A stretch of DNA of 27,074 nucleotides from a virus (taxonomy: Duplodnaviria; Caudoviricetes), in the IMG/VR virus record IMGVR_UViG_3300046817_000104, positions 1-27,074 of that record, one strand, 5' to 3'. This document shows, in pieces, positions 2,065 to 16,533 of this stretch. The stretch's first letter is position 1; the number at the start of each line of letters is the position of its first letter. A program made the position numbers and the translations under genes. Under the pieces are notes generated by a model. It had not been told where the DNA came from and searched no databases. It saw nothing but the letters and a program-made list of their open reading frames with translations.

Positions 2065-3942
2065 ATGTCCGGTGCGTTAGGCACGATTGGTTATCCGACC
2101 CTGCCGACGCCCGGACCGTCGGCGCTATCGTCGTTTGGAGGATCCAGTGGCCCACCCACCCAAGGGCAGCAGTCAATTGGCCCAGCAGTCCCACAGCTAC
2201 CAGCGGTCCACCCCGCAGATCCATCGCGAAGCGGACAAGCTGCTGGAGGAGCTGGTGGACAAGCTGGTGCAGCAGGGGCTTACACGGGAAGAAGCGCGGG
2301 AGCATCTGAGGCACTGGGTCTAGGCCCACCGGTCAAGACCATCTGGAGCGCCAACCGCAGCTACCACAACGCCGACAATCCCGACTACCATGAGCTTCAC
2401 CCCGAGGGCGCGCACGCGTTCCACGCCGCGATCGCCGAGGCCAAGCACGGTCACCCGGCCGGTGCTGCCGTCACCCAGTATCCGGCCGAGGACTACCGCA
2501 AGATGCGGCTGTTCCAGACCAAGGAAGGCGACGCCGGGTTCGCCCTGAAGGGCGACGACATCGTCTCGGTGTTCAAACATCCGAAGGCGCCATACCGTAA
2601 CGTCACCCGATCGATGCTGGATCTCGCCAAGCAGGAGGGCGGCAGGCGGCTCGATGCGTTTGATACCGTGCTGCCGCACATCTACGCGCAGAACGGGTTC
2701 CGCACCGTGGCGCGGCTGCCGTGGAACGAGGACTACAAGCCCGAGGGCTGGAACCACGACGCGTTCAAGCAGTTCAAGGGCGGCAGGCCTGACGTGGTGT
2801 TCATGGCGCATGACCCGCAGGCAGGCGCCTACAACCCTGGTGACGGCCGCACGGTCAGCGACTATGACGAGGGCACGGCAGCGCAGCACGCCGCCCTGGC
2901 GCACGTCGCAGCGCGCGGCAACGTGCCAGCAGCGCCCGGCCCGGAGAGCTACGGCAGCGGCCAGCTGATCAGGATGTCGGATCCTCAGACGGTGTGGCAC
3001 GGCACGCAGCACGAATTCAAACCGACGCGCGTCAATCAGTTGGGCGAGTTCGATCTCAGCAAGATGAGCAGCGGCGAAGGCGGCCAGATGTATGGCCACG
3101 GCGCCTATACCGGTGGCGCCAGGGGGACGGGTGAGGCATACCGGAAGAACCTAGCCGAGGGCGCGAAATATAAGGGCCAGTCAGATCCCATGGGCCTCAG
3201 TGGCCACGATTACAATGCGGCCAGAGAGGTGCTTGATACGATCCACGAGCACGGCATGGCGCCCCAGCAGGCGATCGAGCATGTACGACAGACGCATGAG
3301 CAAGAGGCGGCGAATGCGTTCAGCAAGCCCCAGAGCCACGTCTGGCAGTCATGGCAGGAAGCGGGACATCGCTCTGCTGGCATAGCGGACGCGGTACAGA
3401 GACTGAAGCTAGAGGATTTCACGCATAACCCTGGCCACCTCTACGAAGCCGAGCTGCACATCGACCAGGATCATATGCTGCACTGGGACCATCCCATCGG
3501 GCAGCAGCACCCGTATGTGCAGAGCAGGGCTATCCCTCTCGCTCCATCCGCCTCGATCGGCAGCAAGATGACCGGTCAGATGCTGCACGACTATCTGACC
3601 GGAGGCGACAAGACGCGCAGGCCGATAGCTGCAGAGAAACTGCTGAACGCTGGTATTCCTGGCATCAAGTATGTGGATCAAGACAGCCGGTTAACAGATG
3701 TTGGTCCCTACACTACGGGTGACGGCAAAAGAGCATGGGCTGTGTTCCATAGGAACAATAATTTTCCTCTCGCCACATTCAACACGAAAGAAGAGGCGCA
3801 AGCCCATCTCGAAGCCCACCATCGTACGCACAACTACGTTGTGTTCGATCCAAGAACGATCAACATCGTGAAGCGTAACGGCCTGCCAGCGATGGTGGAT
3901 GCGGGTGCCGATGCGTTGCGCGATCATAAGGCGACAGGCTGA
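2065..3942 (+). CDS. Polyvalent phage protein: GNAT-like domain plus ADP-ribosyltransferase-like (ART-PolyVal-type) domain
   Basis: Long ORF. The segment DIVSVF…LDLAKQEGGRRLDAFDTVLPHIYAQNGF resembles GNAT motifs A/B. VWHGTQHEF…FDLSKMSSGEGGQMYGHGAY…GHLYEAEL…AGIPGIKY…NYVVFDP matches the ART-like domain of phage polyvalent proteins. Confidence 0.6.
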   Translation: MSGALGTIGYPTLPTPGPSALSSFGGSSGPPTQGQQSIGPAVPQLPAVHPADPSRSGQAAGGAGGQAGAAGAYTGRSAGASEALGLGPPVKTIWSANRSYHNADNPDYHELHPEGAHAFHAAIAEAKHGHPAGAAVTQYPAEDYRKMRLFQTKEGDAGFALKGDDIVSVFKHPKAPYRNVTRSMLDLAKQEGGRRLDAFDTVLPHIYAQNGFRTVARLPWNEDYKPEGWNHDAFKQFKGGRPDVVFMAHDPQAGAYNPGDGRTVSDYDEGTAAQHAALAHVAARGNVPAAPGPESYGSGQLIRMSDPQTVWHGTQHEFKPTRVNQLGEFDLSKMSSGEGGQMYGHGAYTGGARGTGEAYRKNLAEGAKYKGQSDPMGLSGHDYNAAREVLDTIHEHGMAPQQAIEHVRQTHEQEAANAFSKPQSHVWQSWQEAGHRSAGIADAVQRLKLEDFTHNPGHLYEAELHIDQDHMLHWDHPIGQQHPYVQSRAIPLAPSASIGSKMTGQMLHDYLTGGDKTRRPIAAEKLLNAGIPGIKYVDQDSRLTDVGPYTTGDGKRAWAVFHRNNNFPLATFNTKEEAQAHLEAHHRTHNYVVFDPRTINIVKRNGLPAMVDAGADALRDHKATG

Positions 3943-5972: not shown

Positions 5973-6156
5973 GATTGACTGGGAACCGTATCGCGGCACC
6001 AACGGGACGTTGGACTACATGCTGAAGAAGGGCATCGAGCCGACGCGGGAGAATTATATCTTCATGGACTATGGCGGGAAGCCGCCTGAGCCGTGGACGG
6101 CGGAGCATGAGAGCATGCTCCCCGAGCCGCTCCAGGAGGGCTACAAGGATGACTGA
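5950..6156 (+). CDS. Small acidic hypothetical phage protein (68 aa)
   Basis: RBS-like GGAG upstream. Overlaps the end of the previous gene and is TGATG-coupled to terL. Confidence 0.75.
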   Translation: MATTPKTKIDWEPYRGTNGTLDYMLKKGIEPTRENYIFMDYGGKPPEPWTAEHESMLPEPLQEGYKDD

Positions 6157-7667
6157 TGCCGCGCCCGAGTCTCGACTTTAACACAGCAGATATCCCCACG
6201 ATCCACGCGTTCCTGCACGATGACGCGTTCATCCGGGGGCTGATGGGTCCGTTCGGTAGCGCAAAGAGTTCCGGATGTCTGTGGGATATCGTTAACCGCA
6301 GCCTCAAGCAGACACCAGGACCGGACGGCATCCGGCGCAGCCGTTGGGCGATCATCCGCAATACGTATAGACAACTGAACGACACCACGATCAGGACCGT
6401 CCACCAATGGTTCCCGTATCCCATGATGGGGATCTGGCGCAGCACCGAGCACGAGTATCTGCTGAACCGGCTGATCGCGCACGGCGACAAGAAATGCGCG
6501 GAAATCGAGCTGCTGTTCCGCGCCCTCGACCGGCCCGACCATGTGCGCAATCTACTGTCGCTCGACCTGACCGGCGCCTGGGTGAACGAAGCCAGGGAGG
6601 TGCCTTGGACGATCATTGATGCGCTGCAAGGCCGTGTCGATCGCTACCCCGCCAAGCGCGACGGCGGCGCGACGTGGGCGGGCATCATCATGGACACCAA
6701 CCCGCCCGACACCGATTCGTCGTGGTACAAGTTCTTCGAGCAGATGGACCACACCGAGGCGGTCGAGCAGCTGGCGCAGTTCATCCCCGGCATGACGGTC
6801 GATCGCTATGCCCGCATCTTCAAGCAACCCTCGGGGCTGAGCCCCAACGCCGAGAACAAGAGCAACCAGAGCCCCGGCTACTGGCAGCGCCTCGCGATCG
6901 GCAAGACCGATGAATGGATCCGGGTTTATTGCAAGGGCGAATATGGTTTCGTCACCGAGGGCAAGCCGGTGTTCCCCGAATACCACGACAACATCCATTG
7001 CCCAGGCAGCGCCGACGAGAAGCGGGCGCCGAAGACCGATCCCAGACTGCCGGTGCATCGCGGCTGGGACTTCGGGCTGACGCCTGCGGTGGTGTTCAGC
7101 CAGCTCGCAGCAAGTGGCCAGTGGAAGGTGGTTGACGAGCTGTGCGCCGATAGCATGGGCATCGACCGGTTCAGCGACCGGGTGCTGTCACACTCGACGC
7201 AATACTTCCCCGACAGCGAGTTCGTTGACGTGGGCGACCCGGCTGGCGACAGCCGCGCCGAGACCGATGAGCGCACCTGCTTCGGTATCCTGCACAACAA
7301 AGGCATCAACATCGAGCCGGGGATGCAGTCGCCGCAGATCCGCCAGGAGGCGGTGCGCAAACCGCTGCGCCAGTTCGATGACGACGGCCGCCCGGCGTTC
7401 AACCTGCACCCCCGCTGCGCGCGGTTGCGACGGGCGCTGATGGGTGGCTACCACTACCGCCGCATTCAGATGGCGGGCAACGAGCGATGGGCCGAGAAGC
7501 CCGAGAAGAATTCGTATTCGCACCCGGCTGATGCGCTGCAATACACCGCGACGCGGCTGTTCGGCCCCAGCCTGCAGTGGAAGGGCGATCAGGTCGACAA
7601 CGAGATGATTGAGCTGAACTCTCGCTTGGTGCAGGATCGCACGCGTAGTCGAACGACGGGCTACTAG
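6156..7667 (+). CDS. terL: Terminase large subunit
   Basis: Walker A-like GPFGSAKSS, Walker B LTGAWVNEARE, coupling motif DTNPP, and nuclease motifs GWDFG, GDPAG and SHPADALQY. Confidence 0.95.
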   Translation: MPRPSLDFNTADIPTIHAFLHDDAFIRGLMGPFGSAKSSGCLWDIVNRSLKQTPGPDGIRRSRWAIIRNTYRQLNDTTIRTVHQWFPYPMMGIWRSTEHEYLLNRLIAHGDKKCAEIELLFRALDRPDHVRNLLSLDLTGAWVNEAREVPWTIIDALQGRVDRYPAKRDGGATWAGIIMDTNPPDTDSSWYKFFEQMDHTEAVEQLAQFIPGMTVDRYARIFKQPSGLSPNAENKSNQSPGYWQRLAIGKTDEWIRVYCKGEYGFVTEGKPVFPEYHDNIHCPGSADEKRAPKTDPRLPVHRGWDFGLTPAVVFSQLAASGQWKVVDELCADSMGIDRFSDRVLSHSTQYFPDSEFVDVGDPAGDSRAETDERTCFGILHNKGINIEPGMQSPQIRQEAVRKPLRQFDDDGRPAFNLHPRCARLRRALMGGYHYRRIQMAGNERWAEKPEKNSYSHPADALQYTATRLFGPSLQWKGDQVDNEMIELNSRLVQDRTRSRTTGY

Positions 7668-7813
7668 CCGCCTTCGCAGAGAGTGCCGTTGTAGATGAGC
7701 GAGCCACGCCACGGGAGAGTACCGTCAATCCAGAGCGAGCCGTGCTGCTGGAGGATACCAAGCCACAGAAGCGAGCCAGTTCAAGCGAGAGTGCCGCCAC
7801 AGGAGAGCGAGTC
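7666..7813 (+). repeat. TIGR array 3 (4 units), satellite array directly after the terL stop
   Basis: Loops at 7679, 7715, 7751 (GAGGATACC), 7787; edges at 7697, 7733, 7769 (AAGCGAGCC), 7805 (GAGCGAGTC). Spacer pairs: gccttcgca/gttgtagat, acgccacgg/gtcaatcca, gtgctgctg/aagccacag, agttcaagc/gccacagga. Confidence 0.92.
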
Positions 7814-7854
7814 TGTCATCATCTTTAATCGTCCCGCGTGATGTCGCAGCGCGC

Positions 7855-8076
7855 ATGCTGGATCAGGCGTGCGCCACCTGCCGGTTCTCGCGGAAGGATC
7901 CATCCGGCGATCGCAACTGCCACCGCGATCCGCCGACGTCGTTCCTCATCCCATTGCCGGGCAAGCTGAACATCGAGATCAAGGCATACAGCTCGCACCC
8001 GATCGTGCGCGACGACGACTGGTGCGGATCATGGGCCCAGCGCGGCGACACCACGCCGCTCACACGCCCTGATTGA
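7855..8076 (+). CDS. Small Cys-rich (probable metal-binding) phage protein
   Basis: Four-cysteine pattern CATCRF…CHRDPP…HPIVRDDDWCGSW, typical of small phage proteins. Confidence 0.75.
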   Translation: MLDQACATCRFSRKDPSGDRNCHRDPPTSFLIPLPGKLNIEIKAYSSHPIVRDDDWCGSWAQRGDTTPLTRPD

Positions 8077-8135
8077 CGCCAGCATAAGCACTGATTGACA
8101 TCACGGACCCGCGAAGCGTCTATATATAGATATAG
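8069..8135 (+). promoter_or_regulatory. Putative promoter/operator upstream of the portal gene
   Basis: Direct repeat CTGATTGAC at 8069 and 8091, TTGACA at 8095-8100, and a perfect AT-rich palindrome TCTATATATAGA at 8119-8130. The -35/-10 spacing is longer than canonical. Confidence 0.45.
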
Positions 8136-8169
8136 CCGTACTGCTGGAGGGTGCCGATATCCATGAGCG
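8134..8169 (+). repeat. Solo TIGR-like unit overlapping the portal RBS and start codon
   Basis: AGCC-gtactgctg-GAGGGTGCC-gatatccat-GAGCG: exactly 36 nt with the same register as the array units. Confidence 0.75.
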
Positions 8170-10763
8170 CCGCGTTAAGCGCGTTTCCGGCGCCAGGACC
8201 ATCGCCGGATCAGGACGACCCGAATCAGCCCCAGGATGGTGACACCAACCAGGGGCCGCCCCCCGATGACCCCGAGCAGCAGCCGCTAAAATCCGCTGAC
8301 ATCCTGCCGCTGCGCCCGCCAGGGCAGGAGCAGAACGACGGCCTCGGTGATCCCCGCCAGAGCCAGGGCGAGCAGCGACCGCTGCTGAAGCCGCAGTATG
8401 CGCGGAAGTTCGCCCGCTGGATCGTGCGCAAGAACATTGCCGACGAGATCGATGACAGCGAGCGGCAGCGCCTCGCGGATCAGGCGAAGCGGGAATACGA
8501 GCTCGACGAAGAGACCCGCTCGGACTGGAAGCAGCGCTACGGCGACTGGATGGACTTTGCGCTGCAGGTGATGCAGCCGAAGACGTATCCCTGGCCCGAC
8601 GCGTCGAACGTGTGCTTCCCGCTGATCACGGTGGCGGCGTTGCAGTTCAATGCGCGCGCCTACCCGGCGATCGTGCAGGGCCGCAACGTGGTCAAGGGCA
8701 CGGTGATCGGTGACGACCGTGGCGTGCCGATGATGATGCCAGCGCAGCCGCCTGGAGGTATGATGCCGCCCGGTGGCCCTGGAGGTGGAGCTGGTGGTCC
8801 TGCGCCGCCGGGGATGCCAGGAGGCGCTCCTGGCGGTCTGGGTGGGCCCCAACCAGGGGCGCCTCCACCGATGCCGGGACTTCCTCCCATGCCGCCCGGC
8901 GCTGGTGGTGCGCAGCTCGGCCCACCCGGAGCACCCGGCCAGGGCGGCCCGCCGCAGCCGCAGGGACCGCAGCAGGCGACCAGCCCCGACGGGCGGCAGC
9001 TGTGGATCCAGCCACCAGGGTCCAAGCAGGCGCGCGCCGACCGCATCGGCCGCCACATGTCGTGGCAGCTGCTCAGCGAGATGCCCGAGTGGGAGGAGCA
9101 GACCGACCGGTTGCTGATCACCGTGGCGATCGCCGGGACCATGTTCCGCAAGAACCACTTCGACCCCAAGCAGCGGCGCAATGTGTCGGAGATCGTATCG
9201 GCGCTCAGATTGTGCGTGAACTACACGGCGAAAAGTTTCGACGCGGCACCGCGCAAGAGCGAGCTGATCGACTTCTACCCGTGGGAGATCGAGAGCAACA
9301 TCCGCTCAGGCCTGTGGGTCGATTACGGTGAGGACGGCTACGGCCGCAACACCGACACCAGCCAGGACGAGCAGGCGCCGGTCACGTTCATCGAGCAGCA
9401 CCGCCGCTACGATCTGGACGACGACGGCTACGAGGAGCCGCTGATCGTTACGTTTGCCAGGGATTCGGGCAAGCTGGCGCGCATCACGGTGGGGTTCGAC
9501 CAGGACGGCATCGAGGCAACCGACGACGGTGAGGTCGCCGAGATCAATCAGATCGATTACTATACGAAATACGGTTTCATTCCGAACCCGGAAGGCGGCG
9601 CCTACGATCTGGGGTTCGGTTCGCTGATGTATCCGCTCAATGCAGCGGTCAACACCAGCATCAACCAGATGTTCGACGCGGGGCATCTGCAGATCGCGGG
9701 CGGCGGTTTCATCGGCGGCGGCGTGTCGATCAACGCCGGGTCGGTGCGGTTCATGACCGGTGAATACAAGGTGGTCACCACGCAGGGGCGTACGCTGCGC
9801 GAGAACCTCGTGCCGCTGGAGATGCCGGGGCCGAACGCGGTGCTGTTCCAGCTGCTGCAGTTCCTGGTCGAGGCGGCGAAGGACATCGGCTCGATCAAGG
9901 AGGTACTACAGGGCCAGCTGCCCGGCGCGAATGTTCCGGGGATCCTCGGTCTGGCAGTGATCCAGCAAGGGCTGAAGGTGTTCAATGCGATCTTCAAACG
10001 CATCCATAGATCTCTCCGCCAGGACTTCGACAAACTATTCCGGCTCAACCGTCTGTATCTCCCTGACGAAGCCGGTTTTAGGATCGGTTCCGAATACTTC
10101 CAGATCACGCGCGCCGATTACCTCAGAGGGTCGGGGGCTGAGCCGGTATCAGATCCGGACATGGTCACCGACACCCAGCAGATGGCGCAGGCTAACTTCC
10201 TCCTGCAGTTCGTGGGCGACCCGTTCTTTGACGGCCGTGAGATCCGCCTGCGCGCGATGCAGGCGGCGTCCATCCAGCAGGTAGACAAGCTGCTGGCACC
10301 GCAGGCGCCGCCCAATGCCGAGCTGGTGCAGGCGGCAGCCAGCCTCGATCTGCAGAAGCAACAAGTCGACATTGCCGGTCAGATGGCGAACCTGCGCAAC
10401 AAGGAGCTGGATATTCGTTTCGCTCATGAGCAGGCGGACATTCTGATCCGGCGCGGCAAGGACAAGGCGAGCGAGATTAAGGAACTGTCGCAGGCGATTC
10501 TCAATCTGGCCAATGCGCGCAAGGCTGACGCCGATGTCGACCAGAACTGGTACAACGTGCAACTGACAGCCTTGAAACATCAGGTGGATATGCTGAATGC
10601 TCTCACTGACACCGGAACTGATGGCGAGGGTGGTAACGCCAGCGGAGGAGGTGGCAGCGGAGCGCCGCCCGGCCTTGCTCGATCTGTCGGAGCAGGACTA
10701 TCAGCTGTGGCTGAGACACCCGGTGTCGGTGCAGATCTTCCTGTGGCTGGCGGATTATCGTGA
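8163..10763 (+). CDS. Portal protein
   Basis: Position after terL. Motifs KTYPWPDASNVCFPLITVAALQFNARAY, IEQHRRYDLDDDGYEEPLIVT and INQMFDAGHL. ATG 8163 follows GGAGGG (8146-8151); GTG 8151 is an alternative start. Confidence 0.9.
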   Translation: MSAALSAFPAPGPSPDQDDPNQPQDGDTNQGPPPDDPEQQPLKSADILPLRPPGQEQNDGLGDPRQSQGEQRPLLKPQYARKFARWIVRKNIADEIDDSERQRLADQAKREYELDEETRSDWKQRYGDWMDFALQVMQPKTYPWPDASNVCFPLITVAALQFNARAYPAIVQGRNVVKGTVIGDDRGVPMMMPAQPPGGMMPPGGPGGGAGGPAPPGMPGGAPGGLGGPQPGAPPPMPGLPPMPPGAGGAQLGPPGAPGQGGPPQPQGPQQATSPDGRQLWIQPPGSKQARADRIGRHMSWQLLSEMPEWEEQTDRLLITVAIAGTMFRKNHFDPKQRRNVSEIVSALRLCVNYTAKSFDAAPRKSELIDFYPWEIESNIRSGLWVDYGEDGYGRNTDTSQDEQAPVTFIEQHRRYDLDDDGYEEPLIVTFARDSGKLARITVGFDQDGIEATDDGEVAEINQIDYYTKYGFIPNPEGGAYDLGFGSLMYPLNAAVNTSINQMFDAGHLQIAGGGFIGGGVSINAGSVRFMTGEYKVVTTQGRTLRENLVPLEMPGPNAVLFQLLQFLVEAAKDIGSIKEVLQGQLPGANVPGILGLAVIQQGLKVFNAIFKRIHRSLRQDFDKLFRLNRLYLPDEAGFRIGSEYFQITRADYLRGSGAEPVSDPDMVTDTQQMAQANFLLQFVGDPFFDGREIRLRAMQAASIQQVDKLLAPQAPPNAELVQAAASLDLQKQQVDIAGQMANLRNKELDIRFAHEQADILIRRGKDKASEIKELSQAILNLANARKADADVDQNWYNVQLTALKHQVDMLNALTDTGTDGEGGNASGGGGSGAPPGLARSVGAGLSAVAETPGVGADLPVAGGLS

Positions 10764-10935: not shown

Positions 10936-11054
10936 TGCCTAAGCTGAACCAACACCGCTGCGCAAATCGGACGCAGAAAGGCTGGGGCGCCGAACCGGTG
11001 AAAAACCCCAACACTGGGTGCCGGGGTTCATGGCCCGGCTGGCAGGTCAACTGA
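10935..11054 (+). CDS. 39-aa microprotein MPKLNQHRCANRTQKGWGAEPVKNPNTGCRGSWPGWQVN
   Basis: TGATG overlaps at both ends (10933-10937 and 11052-11056). Below the ORF-track cutoff. Confidence 0.55.
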   Translation: MPKLNQHRCANRTQKGWGAEPVKNPNTGCRGSWPGWQVN

Positions 11055-11452
11055 TGCTTGAAGGGCGCATCCTCAAGACCGGCGATCAGCGCGAGTTCGT
11101 ACATGCCGAATTCGATGGCGCCAATCACAGCGGCATCACGCCGCTCGACGACAAGATCCTGGTGCTGATGGACCAGCACGCCGAGAAGACGTCGGGCGGT
11201 ATCATCATCACGCAGGACACCCAGTCACGCCAGAGCATGGCCAGCGAGACCGGCGTGGTGATCGCTCTCGGCGCAGCGGCGTTTGCGTTCAACGACGACG
11301 GCAACCGGCGCTGGAGCACTGCCAAGCCAATCCCCGGCGATCGCGTCGTGGTCGAACGCTACGCGGGGCGCGTGGTGCAGGGCGAGGACGGCCAGGAATA
11401 TCGATTGGTATCGCAGCGCTCGATCGGCGCGATCTACAGCAAGGCCGAATGA
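11054..11452 (+). CDS. groES: GroES-like co-chaperonin (Cpn10)
   Basis: PLDDKILV…EKTSGGIII…GVVIALG…GDRVVVERYAG…EYRLVSQRSI follows the GroES pattern. ATG 11054 is chosen because of stop-start coupling. Confidence 0.88.
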   Translation: MLEGRILKTGDQREFVHAEFDGANHSGITPLDDKILVLMDQHAEKTSGGIIITQDTQSRQSMASETGVVIALGAAAFAFNDDGNRRWSTAKPIPGDRVVVERYAGRVVQGEDGQEYRLVSQRSIGAIYSKAE

Positions 11453-15751: not shown

Positions 15752-15940
15752 ATGACTATTGGCTTCCTGTTTTGGTTGCTGATGATACTAGCCATCGTGT
15801 TCTACGTGGTCGGCTACTGGGGGCCATATGCAAGCAACCCCCATTGGCCGAGGTTCAACGGCGTCTGGGTGTTCGTGCTCCTATTTCTTTTGGGATGGGC
15901 AGTTTTTGGATTTGCCATCCAGGGACCGGGCGTCCGGTGA
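15752..15940 (+). CDS. Small two-TM membrane protein (62 aa)
   Basis: RBS AGGAGG and two hydrophobic segments. Confidence 0.8.
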   Translation: MTIGFLFWLLMILAIVFYVVGYWGPYASNPHWPRFNGVWVFVLLFLLGWAVFGFAIQGPGVR

Positions 15941-16533
15941 GATACTTCGAGCGGATCGCCGCTGGCATCGACGTCGAGCCTCTGTTGCATCAGTTGCGTA
16001 CGCAACCGGAGCTATGGAACGCGGTGCCGATCCGCTCGCAGTATGGCCAGCACAAGGACACCGACGACATCCTGCTGCGCTACAATCGGTTCGACCCGGC
16101 GCGGGATGATCCGCGCGATGTCGTGGTCAGCAGCATCTACTGCAAGAACTATCCCGCCTGGGGCGCGCTGCCGCTCGCCATGCCGATCGTGTTCGGTCTG
16201 ATGGCCAGGGTGCAGGGGGTGCATCTCGGGCGGGTGTTCATCTCCCGCCTGCCGCCCGAGGCATCCATCCCGCCGCACAGTGACCGCGATCCGTTCACTG
16301 AACAGGAATTCCCCGAGCGGCCGGTGCCTGCGGTCTACTACGAGCGCTACCAGCTGACGCTGCAGGCGCACCCTGGCGTGGTGTTCGTGGCGGGCGACGA
16401 GCGGGTCTACATGGAGCCGGGCACGATCTGGTGGTTCGACAATCAGGCCGAGCACACGGTGGAGAACCGCTCGCTGGATGACCGCATCGCCATGACGATC
16501 GACATCCGGCCGTTCAAGCCGCTGGAGCCGTGA
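15937..16533 (+). CDS. Fe(II)/2-oxoglutarate oxygenase, aspartyl/asparaginyl beta-hydroxylase-like family
   Basis: GTGA-coupled start. HxD (IPPHSD), distal His (WWFDNQAEHTVEN) and Arg (DDRI) fit the facial triad and 2OG-binding pattern. Confidence 0.82.
   Translation: MRYFERIAAGIDVEPLLHQLRTQPELWNAVPIRSQYGQHKDTDDILLRYNRFDPARDDPRDVVVSSIYCKNYPAWGALPLAMPIVFGLMARVQGVHLGRVFISRLPPEASIPPHSDRDPFTEQEFPERPVPAVYYERYQLTLQAHPGVVFVAGDERVYMEPGTIWWFDNQAEHTVENRSLDDRIAMTIDIRPFKPLEP

Follow-up and report, generated by a model that had tools for sequence, protein, structure and literature searches.

A dispersed TIGR array behind the terminase gene of a soil phage, with candidate natural targets in kin phages

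Introduction

In the accessible text of the reports on TIGR-Tas systems, TIGR arrays are described upstream of, downstream of, flanking or inside the tas gene (PMC12045711; Xu 2026, 10.64898/2026.09.09.750476), and sub-arrays are known from one stem-loop locus that contains three of these, approximately 450 nt apart (PMC12045711; Xu 2026). Faure et al. (2025) examined 5 kb on each side of tas (PMC12045711). The discussion sections of PMC12045711 and Xu 2026 describe natural targets as hard to determine and spacer acquisition as open. A TIGR array that follows the gene for the large terminase subunit (terL) of a soil phage raises the question of what guides encoded among packaging genes, away from their effector gene, might be for. 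Here, this question is addressed for the window, that is, the entire 27,074-nt stretch of DNA that was analysed (positions 1 to 27,074 of the IMG/VR record IMGVR_UViG_3300046817_000104), and for relatives of its source phage.

Results

Four TIGR units start in the terL stop codon

The array (positions 7666-7809; on the plus strand, like tasA and its flanking arrays, terL, orf87, the solo unit and the portal gene described below) consists of four 36-nt units arranged head to tail: unit 1 at 7666-7701 (spacer A, 7671-7678; spacer B, 7689-7696), unit 2 at 7702-7737, unit 3, with a deviant loop repeat, at 7738-7773, and unit 4, the last one, at 7774-7809. Unit 1 starts inside the terL stop codon TAG (7665-7667), which is overlapped by the first AGCC; at the 3' end, GAGCG is directly followed by a degenerate half repeat (7810-7813). 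Three of the four units are exact matches to the pattern AGCC-N9-GAGnnTRCC-N9-GAGCG. Unit 3 deviates from the consensus at two positions, and 20 Markov controls yielded no matches at up to two mismatches. Across the complete window, 12 sites fit the pattern exactly, compared to none in 100 shuffled sequences. Of these sites, five lie upstream and three downstream of tas, three belong to the post-terL array, and one is a solo unit at 8134. The scan thus confirmed the four units and revealed a fifth one, the solo unit over the portal start (8134-8169), that the original prediction had missed. That prediction had also taken the spacers to be 9 nt long. They are 8 nt, given that the base directly after each repeat is G in 349 of the 383 clade units and belongs to box C.

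All four units show the features of the dual-repeat TIGR type: they follow one another at exactly 36 nt and combine two 10-nt repeats with spacers of 8 nt. Both repeat consensuses start with GAG and end with CC followed by a purine; one edge repeat of unit 3 begins with AAG. The tas gene is flanked by two further arrays, one of 8 units upstream (368-655) and one of 6 units downstream (1834-2049), which starts in the tas stop codon. None of the four post-terL spacer pairs recurs in either of these, so the four units combine the same repeats with new spacers, as had been proposed. The distance from the tas stop codon (1835) to the array is 5,831 nt, with four genes in between, and the array adjoins no tas gene, in agreement with the predicted 5.8 kb. 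Adjacency to tas, a mark of TIGR-Tas systems, is thus not seen here; the repeats are the same as those of the tas-flanking arrays, and we file the array as a distant array of that system.

No terminator-like site, U-tailed ones included, was flagged 3' of the array, where the next gene, orf87, starts 3 nt on; an intrinsic terminator is typical of dual-repeat arrays and is not required for membership. The predicted fold of 7666-7809 is no better than that of shuffled sequences (z 0.03). An AGCC over a TAG or TGA stop codon is found at 1833-1837, 7665-7669 and 74-79 and in several arrays of relatives, an overlap that may reflect insertion-site preference. Degenerate TIGR-like units that start in a stop codon and are followed by a short hairpin are located at 74-130. 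Altogether, the array is genuine. It belongs to a known family, is arranged in a new way and offers natural-target candidates that can be tested.

The effector is a Tas protein without a nuclease domain

The tasA gene (666-1835) encodes a Nop-domain Tas protein of 389 aa. It matches NF052498 with 184.7 bits (cut-off 100), a model whose name says endonuclease, and the proteins closest to it in sequence and fold are TasR and TasH (top folds, E 3e-6 to 3e-5). The predicted structure is all-helical, with no beta strand and with low confidence for residues 1-90, and a Pfam scan of the product detected no nuclease family and no RuvC or HNH domain. On these grounds, the effector is classified as TasA, with a predicted Nop domain, a coiled coil and no nuclease. 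In an alignment of 18 Tas rows, neither H361 nor H363 varies, and position 353 holds Tyr or, in 3 of the 18, Phe. The resulting C-terminal Tyr/Phe...Gly-His motif resembles, at the sequence level, the C-terminal Tyr/His pair reported for TasH processing (PMC13421893, accessible text), with the qualification that the TasA C-terminus aligns to TasR and not to TasH, where the pair was defined.

One tas gene is present in the window and one in the near-identical 47-kb record G001 (fragments, 47% and 74% complete, respectively); across five records, four contain one tas gene each and the fifth contains none. A Pfam scan of 37 ORFs upstream in G001, the majority of them unannotated, detected no nuclease family. 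An element-encoded nuclease that cuts the element-free allele, the hallmark of homing endonucleases, was not found.

The array lies within a co-directed block of genes

The terL gene (6156-7667) was identified by profile matches, by its homologues and by the portal gene being next but one. The matches of the window protein itself are weak (Pfam Terminase_3, E 0.0054; TIGR01547, E 1.9e-4; PHROG terL, E 0.0013), and all five outgroup homologues tested match phrog_2 strongly (E 8e-20 to 5e-25). A PDB profile search with terL found nothing, and the predicted structure (pLDDT 30.6) was not used as evidence. Between terL and the portal gene lies orf87 (7813-8076), a conserved, small, Cys-containing gene of 87 codons. 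Its putative CTG start was deduced from the ATG or GTG starts of the homologues in relatives, and the end of unit 4 provides a Shine-Dalgarno-like GGAG (7802-7805) for it. A promoter-like motif follows (8095-8130; TTGAC, 20 nt, CTANAT), and then the portal gene (8163-10763; phrog_1216, E 3e-12), the N-terminus of which is conserved in relatives. Further downstream, the head module includes genes for a GroES-like co-chaperonin (11018-11452) and an aspartyl/asparaginyl beta-hydroxylase-like protein (15772-16533).

All genes from tas to the post-terL array are on one strand, and the single terminator-like site between them (3743-3757) does not rise above chance. Co-transcription of the array with tas is therefore possible. 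The late timing of array expression that had been suggested is plausible from position alone. The Rfam search yielded a single type of match, a tRNA, across five sources. No relatives of terL were found in GTDB genomes and none of tas in GenBank phages. Two PEP-CTERM proteins encoded in G001 upstream of the tas region (L091:2590-4437) are a possible hint at the host type.

The dispersed layout has a single origin in one phage clade

Searches with terL and portal yielded the clade relatives, at 82-100% terL identity. On the terL tree, the array-bearing phages form one branch (11 of the 24 rows; 98/98), so that, as traced by terL sequences, the dispersed layout has one origin. A post-terL array is present in 8 of the 9 distinct clade types whose sequence covers the end of terL (the window type, L002, L003, L004, the L007 type, L115, L098 and the L105 type), with 2-10 units and mostly different spacers. 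The exception, L097, shows a deletion and has no post-terL array; L005, which ends 157 nt after terL, was left out of the count. Among 22 outgroup loci (terL identity 54-74%), there were no arrays at the terL-orf87 junction and no tas hits, in a scan that used the clade repeats and would miss unrelated ones. The comparison at the terL stop codon that the original prediction called for thus places the array within the clade. In 6 of the 7 outgroup junctions viewed, orf87 starts at most 10 nt from the terL stop codon, which indicates that the array was inserted into a tight operon.

Clade arrays occupy up to seven core-gene junctions. Among these are both sides of tas and the orf68-terL junction, which is empty and stop/start-coupled in the window (6150-6158) and holds an array in those relatives whose sequence includes it. 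In addition, G001 carries two solo units approximately 20 and 23 kb from tas (L091:16783-16818 and L091:19961-19996). The proposed spread of the guide repertoire over the packaging module is therefore borne out as to the many junctions and is too narrow as to its limits, with arrays upstream of tas and solo units about 20 kb away. One of the two solo units lies on the opposite strand, with a simple hairpin behind it.

Of 77 further tas loci, many of them short, four were flagged as having arrays of at least two units at a distance of more than 2.5 kb from tas: L077, L089 and L090, the latter two identical in layout, and, doubtfully, L020. In L089/L090, these arrays lie 4.9-9.3 kb upstream of tas, and in L077, 3.3-4.0 kb downstream; one is on the opposite strand.

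Small ORFs that differ from phage to phage are inserted between terL and orf87 (L105:10731-11057, L098:1812-1991, L004:10416-10600), and one of them matches phrog_16521; given this variety, the junction appears to be an insertion hot spot. An HNH-like reading of the post-terL ORFs in L098 and L105 was not confirmed by profile searches.

Arrays turn over in whole units

The phage L002 (97% terL identity) has two of the four window units in common: unit 1, with one change, and unit 4, which stays the last unit both in L002 and in the contig variant X15. One environmental contig (depth ~3) carries 92 other bases, unit 1, an exact 72-nt skip corresponding to units 2 and 3, and unit 4, and in another, single contig of the same depth (~3), units 1 and 2 are replaced. 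Array turnover proceeds in whole units. A second mapping of environmental reads showed no joints.

Three units recur in identical form in different phages, at array sites that differ. Halves are reused as well: a spacer A is found with an unrelated partner in 7 of 352 cases and a spacer B in 12 of 347, where about one identical pair is expected. Both observations support the idea that units can move. Judging from its sequence, unit 3 of the window is likely a chimera, with a spacer A equal to that of the solo unit at the L003 portal gene and a spacer B found in four units of relatives.

Last units match the flanking genes of kin phages

Targets were sought as spacer A followed, without a gap, by the reverse complement of spacer B, with three control geometries; this arrangement is implied by the 8-nt 3' overhang of the published cleavage (PMC12045711, accessible text). 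Searches with all 382 units yielded no enrichment at up to two mismatches (41 canonical matches and 45, 40 and 29 in the controls); at up to one mismatch, the counts were 10 and 4, 0 and 2, respectively. We then took the 29 units at the 3' ends of the post-tas, pre-terL and post-terL arrays and compared them with the flanking gene of another clade phage, at up to two mismatches. Nine of these 29 match it at 14-15 of 16 positions, as against 3 of 185 other units (Fisher p 8e-7, an optimistic value because the rule was noticed and tested on overlapping data, some of the 29 are near-duplicates and a single terL site accounts for two of the hits) and 1 of 87 in the control geometries. Computationally, the tandem of spacer A and opposite-strand spacer B is thus enriched over the controls for last units, and likewise for the first units upstream of tas.

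In all nine cases, the match to the phage's own allele is worse than that to the kin allele, a difference that is partly built in because the best of up to 17 alleles was taken. When seven sites were tabulated by allele, the own allele ranked lowest, alone or in a tie, among the listed clade alleles at five; it was typical at one and tied best at one. The kin matches lie within approximately 1.7 kb of the array, and the best reaches 15/16, none being perfect. In the window, the terL sites 6406-6421 and 7372-7387 are matched at 15/16 by guides of other clade phages, the former by different guides from three phages. This shared site is not more variable than other protein-invariant segments (42nd-59th percentile), and diversifying selection was not seen. 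Anecdotally, a 571-nt environmental contig (depth ~4) differs from the window at only five positions, clustered at 6401-6419 on this site.

Several other matches were noted. The first unit of L098 has a 15/16 match in its own terL, which counts against kin targeting, and the L093 unit at 19165 matches, at 15/16, the tas gene of another group of tas phages (L014, L015, L017, L019), which could be chance. A one-base overlap of the two spacers, seen in 94 of 370 guide pairs with 93 expected, was rejected for the clade.

Such matches might be by-products of array growth. Arrays would spread into tolerant junctions by repeat recombination, 3' spacers would be copied from nearby, and the near-matches would be footprints of acquisition with little competitive effect. 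The position of the matches, in last units and close to the array, fits this account, as do the lack of any perfect match, the target site without extra diversity, the loss of the array in L097, and the post-terL arrays of L004, L007 and L115, in which the last units differ and some inner units are common. However, footprints of acquisition do not explain why the matches favour the alleles of other phages over the own one, or why one terL site is matched by different guides in three phages. Furthermore, inner units do not resemble flanking genes in excess of the controls (26 of 158 at up to three mismatches, compared to 18, 24 and 25), which argues that last units are not simply pushed inward. 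We consider this explanation possible but unlikely.

A structured RNA element follows the matching last units

Many arrays of relatives have at their end a stem of 10-15 bp, which encloses segments a, b, a' and b' of 6, 7-9, 6 and 7-9 nt, respectively, often directly before the next start codon. This 3' element, a covarying RNA with a long stem and a 6-nt bulge complementary to the apical loop, is present at 15 of 58 array ends, some of which are not true ends (examples are L003:11692-11744, L004:10967-11017 and about 20 other array ends). In 21 distinct cores, 122 of the 126 a/a' cells pair, compared to a mean of 92 (maximum 103) in shuffled sets, with a register that was fitted by script and favours pairing. 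Only 3 of 3,000 random positions pass the test for the element. It is reminiscent of branched kissing loops and phi29 pRNA contacts.

All nine gap-free hits are followed by the element (eight in the strict form, one in a longer variant); six last units have the element but no hit, and among last units without it, there are 0 hits in 14. Some copies precede an array. A covariance model of the element matched in clade loci only, with no matches in the window, the G001 regions, the outgroups or 25 other tas loci, and Rfam yielded no match for it. The post-terL array of the window accordingly ends without one, which weakens the case for its own guides.

Guides of the post-terL array have candidate targets in orf87

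For the window array itself, the best gap-free matches in terL or orf87 alleles have 5, 4, 3 and 4 mismatches for units 1-4, respectively. With a 2-bp gap, unit 4 matches orf87 of the kin phage L097 at 14/16, compared to 6-7 mismatches with the own allele. Gaps of 1-2 bp are tolerated in TasR cleavage (PMC12045711, accessible text), which is not a test of TasA binding. When post-terL arrays were compared with orf87 at gaps of 0-2, matches were found for 3 of 7 last units (window unit 4 included), 0 of 38 other units and 0 of 21 controls. Unit 3 matches orf87 of the kin phage L007 at 13/16, at a site that is also matched by the last unit of L115. At up to three mismatches, 2 of 387 units match this site, namely, the L115 last unit, which defined it, and window unit 3, compared to 0 of 1,161 controls; in the window, the site matched in kin alleles corresponds to orf87 positions 8017-8032. 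For unit 3, whose sequence complexity is low, there are 14/16 matches elsewhere in the phage's own genome as well (12665 and 19345). By sequence comparison, kin orf87 is thus a candidate target of units 4 and 3. Unit 2 matches the helicase gene of the kin phage G003 at 15/16 with a 2-bp gap (13/16 at the own site), which, taken alone, is at chance level. A search of the own genome with the four units and 9-nt spacers gave at best 3 mismatches. Overall, the evidence for kin targeting is strong for the clade and moderate for the guides of the post-terL array itself.

Most of the approximately 370 distinct guide pairs have no kin target, and unit 1 has no match with gaps of 0 to 2 at up to two mismatches in 668 kb of family DNA. 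These guides could be stored against the host or unrelated mobile elements, with the place behind terL borrowing a strong transcript, and the 16/16 matches of unit 3 in two loci of another tas phage group would be compatible with such a role. However, the low complexity of unit 3 weakens this point, perfect matches numbering one in the canonical and one in a control geometry, and the last-unit bias is left unexplained; storage against hosts or unrelated elements is a very improbable account of the array.

The first guide upstream of tas matches the putative tas promoter

In the window, the guide of the first unit upstream of tas fits positions 345-360 at 14/16, a stretch that overlaps the putative -10 region of the promoter. 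The corresponding units match their own upstream DNA at 14/16 in four phages and at 13/16 in two, with no match in the seventh, and the matched sequences differ among the six phages. Controls have 4-8 mismatches, but one window control on the minus strand has a single mismatch. The location of the sites over putative -10 regions suggests natural autorepression of tas by TasA. Among 67 tas loci tested for such a self-match, it was convincing only in three clade members; a hit in L089 was unconvincing.

A solo unit forms the leader of the portal gene

The solo unit (8134-8169) forms the 5' leader of the portal gene. Spacer B contributes its final two bases, and the edge repeat its first base, to the portal ATG (8163-8165). 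A single unit is found between the promoter-like motif and the portal gene in 5 of 7 clade types, with five spacer pairs and one of the units degenerate, and all five keep the portal ATG in this register. In L007 and L115, the ATG directly follows the motif, so that the gene looks leaderless. The motif occurs in all clade types viewed and is absent from the 7 outgroup junctions viewed; a sigma-70 scan did not flag 8095-8130. A match of the solo-unit guides to portal promoter regions was rejected (4-6 mismatches at best); likewise, an 11-12/16 resemblance, noted by eye, between unit 2 in reversed geometry and the portal promoter was dismissed as chance.

The constant register, kept despite the five spacer pairs, is what would be expected if the units acted at the RNA level, as sites in the mRNA that TasA binds or cleaves. 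Cuts would then part terL from orf87, and the solo unit would gate portal translation. The gain of the motif in array-bearing phages at a position where outgroups couple the genes, the strong stem before the next start codon at many array ends and the C-terminal Tas motif similar to the TasH processing pair (PMC13421893, accessible text) point in the same direction. Nevertheless, the solo unit is dispensable, given its absence in L007 and L115, and has half edge repeats, whereas minimal arrays required full ones for processing (PMC12045711, accessible text). In addition, the orf68-terL junction is empty in the window, and a cleavage site needs neither varying spacers nor unit numbers that range from 2 to 10. 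Control of the packaging operon at the RNA level is, accordingly, an improbable purpose of the arrays.

Discussion

The observed base for an interpretation comprises the array itself, its conserved position with changing spacers, the single origin of the layout, the nuclease-less TasA and the enrichment of matches in last units. The last guides often nearly match the neighbouring gene of kin phages, so the arrays likely silence close kin. The explanation that we favour, with a probability of roughly 0.55, is that the post-terL array is transcribed with the packaging genes and processed and that its guides, loaded on TasA, block genes of co-infecting kin. The array is likely included in the packaging transcript. 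By analogy with the biochemistry of TasH and TasA, its RNA is likely cut into 36-nt guides that TasA loads, and reporter assays with another TasA (Xu 2026) suggest repression by binding. The blocked genes would be those of co-infecting kin phages. Such phages frequently recombine, and inner units are exchanged among their arrays. A guide directed at an essential gene would therefore be protected only in the terminal position beside that gene, where it would stay linked to the mismatched, resistant allele. This linkage could be the reason for the dispersal of the arrays.

A more far-reaching and, in our estimate, unlikely possibility is a nuclease-free, RNA-guided allele drive. A terminal guide together with the knotted RNA element would land beside an essential gene, be rewritten in place against kin alleles and seed an array; during co-infection, TasA would silence the rival allele, and the module would spread along with the resistant allele. 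Spacers would then be acquired at the element-adjacent unit, and TasA would control portal translation through the solo unit. Phage homing endonucleases (Birkholz et al. 2024, PMC11620839) are similar in that a phage element attacks a gene sequence of a co-infecting phage. TIGR recognition, unlike theirs, would be RNA-guided and reprogrammable, with no family membership implied, and TasA, lacking a nuclease domain, would not by itself be expected to cut DNA or to promote homing.

Two other systems invite comparison, within the accessible parts of the respective reports. Virus-borne mini-CRISPR arrays (Medvedeva et al. 2019, PMC6858448) are likewise short and distant from the effector genes, and spacers of related viruses target each other. 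They consist, however, of CRISPR repeats, in viruses without cas genes, whereas the window phage encodes its effector, uses 8+8 nt guides and places the guide next to the gene that is targeted in kin. VIPR (10.64898/2026.04.26.720920) also comprises phage-encoded RNA-guided repressors with natural targets in competing phages, but differs in its GGY/NN guide code, in the unrelated protein and in its targets, mainly satellites and prophages. Compared to the dual-repeat TIGR-TasA systems in the accessible literature, the post-terL array lies beyond the 5-kb span of Faure et al., and the clade is distinguished by up to seven occupied core-gene junctions, a solo unit at a start codon and target candidates that can be named. 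A literature search, thin on subscription journals, turned up no TIGR arrays among phage structural genes and no self-promoter or kin-gene guides.

Surveys restricted to the tas neighbourhood miss part of the guide repertoire. The clade yields named guide-target pairs of two classes, the putative tas promoter, for autoregulation, and the flanking gene of kin phages. These pairs bear on the questions on TIGR-Tas that the accessible discussions state as open, natural targets and spacer acquisition, and the positional rule, with the last unit beside a structured element, points to where arrays get rewritten.
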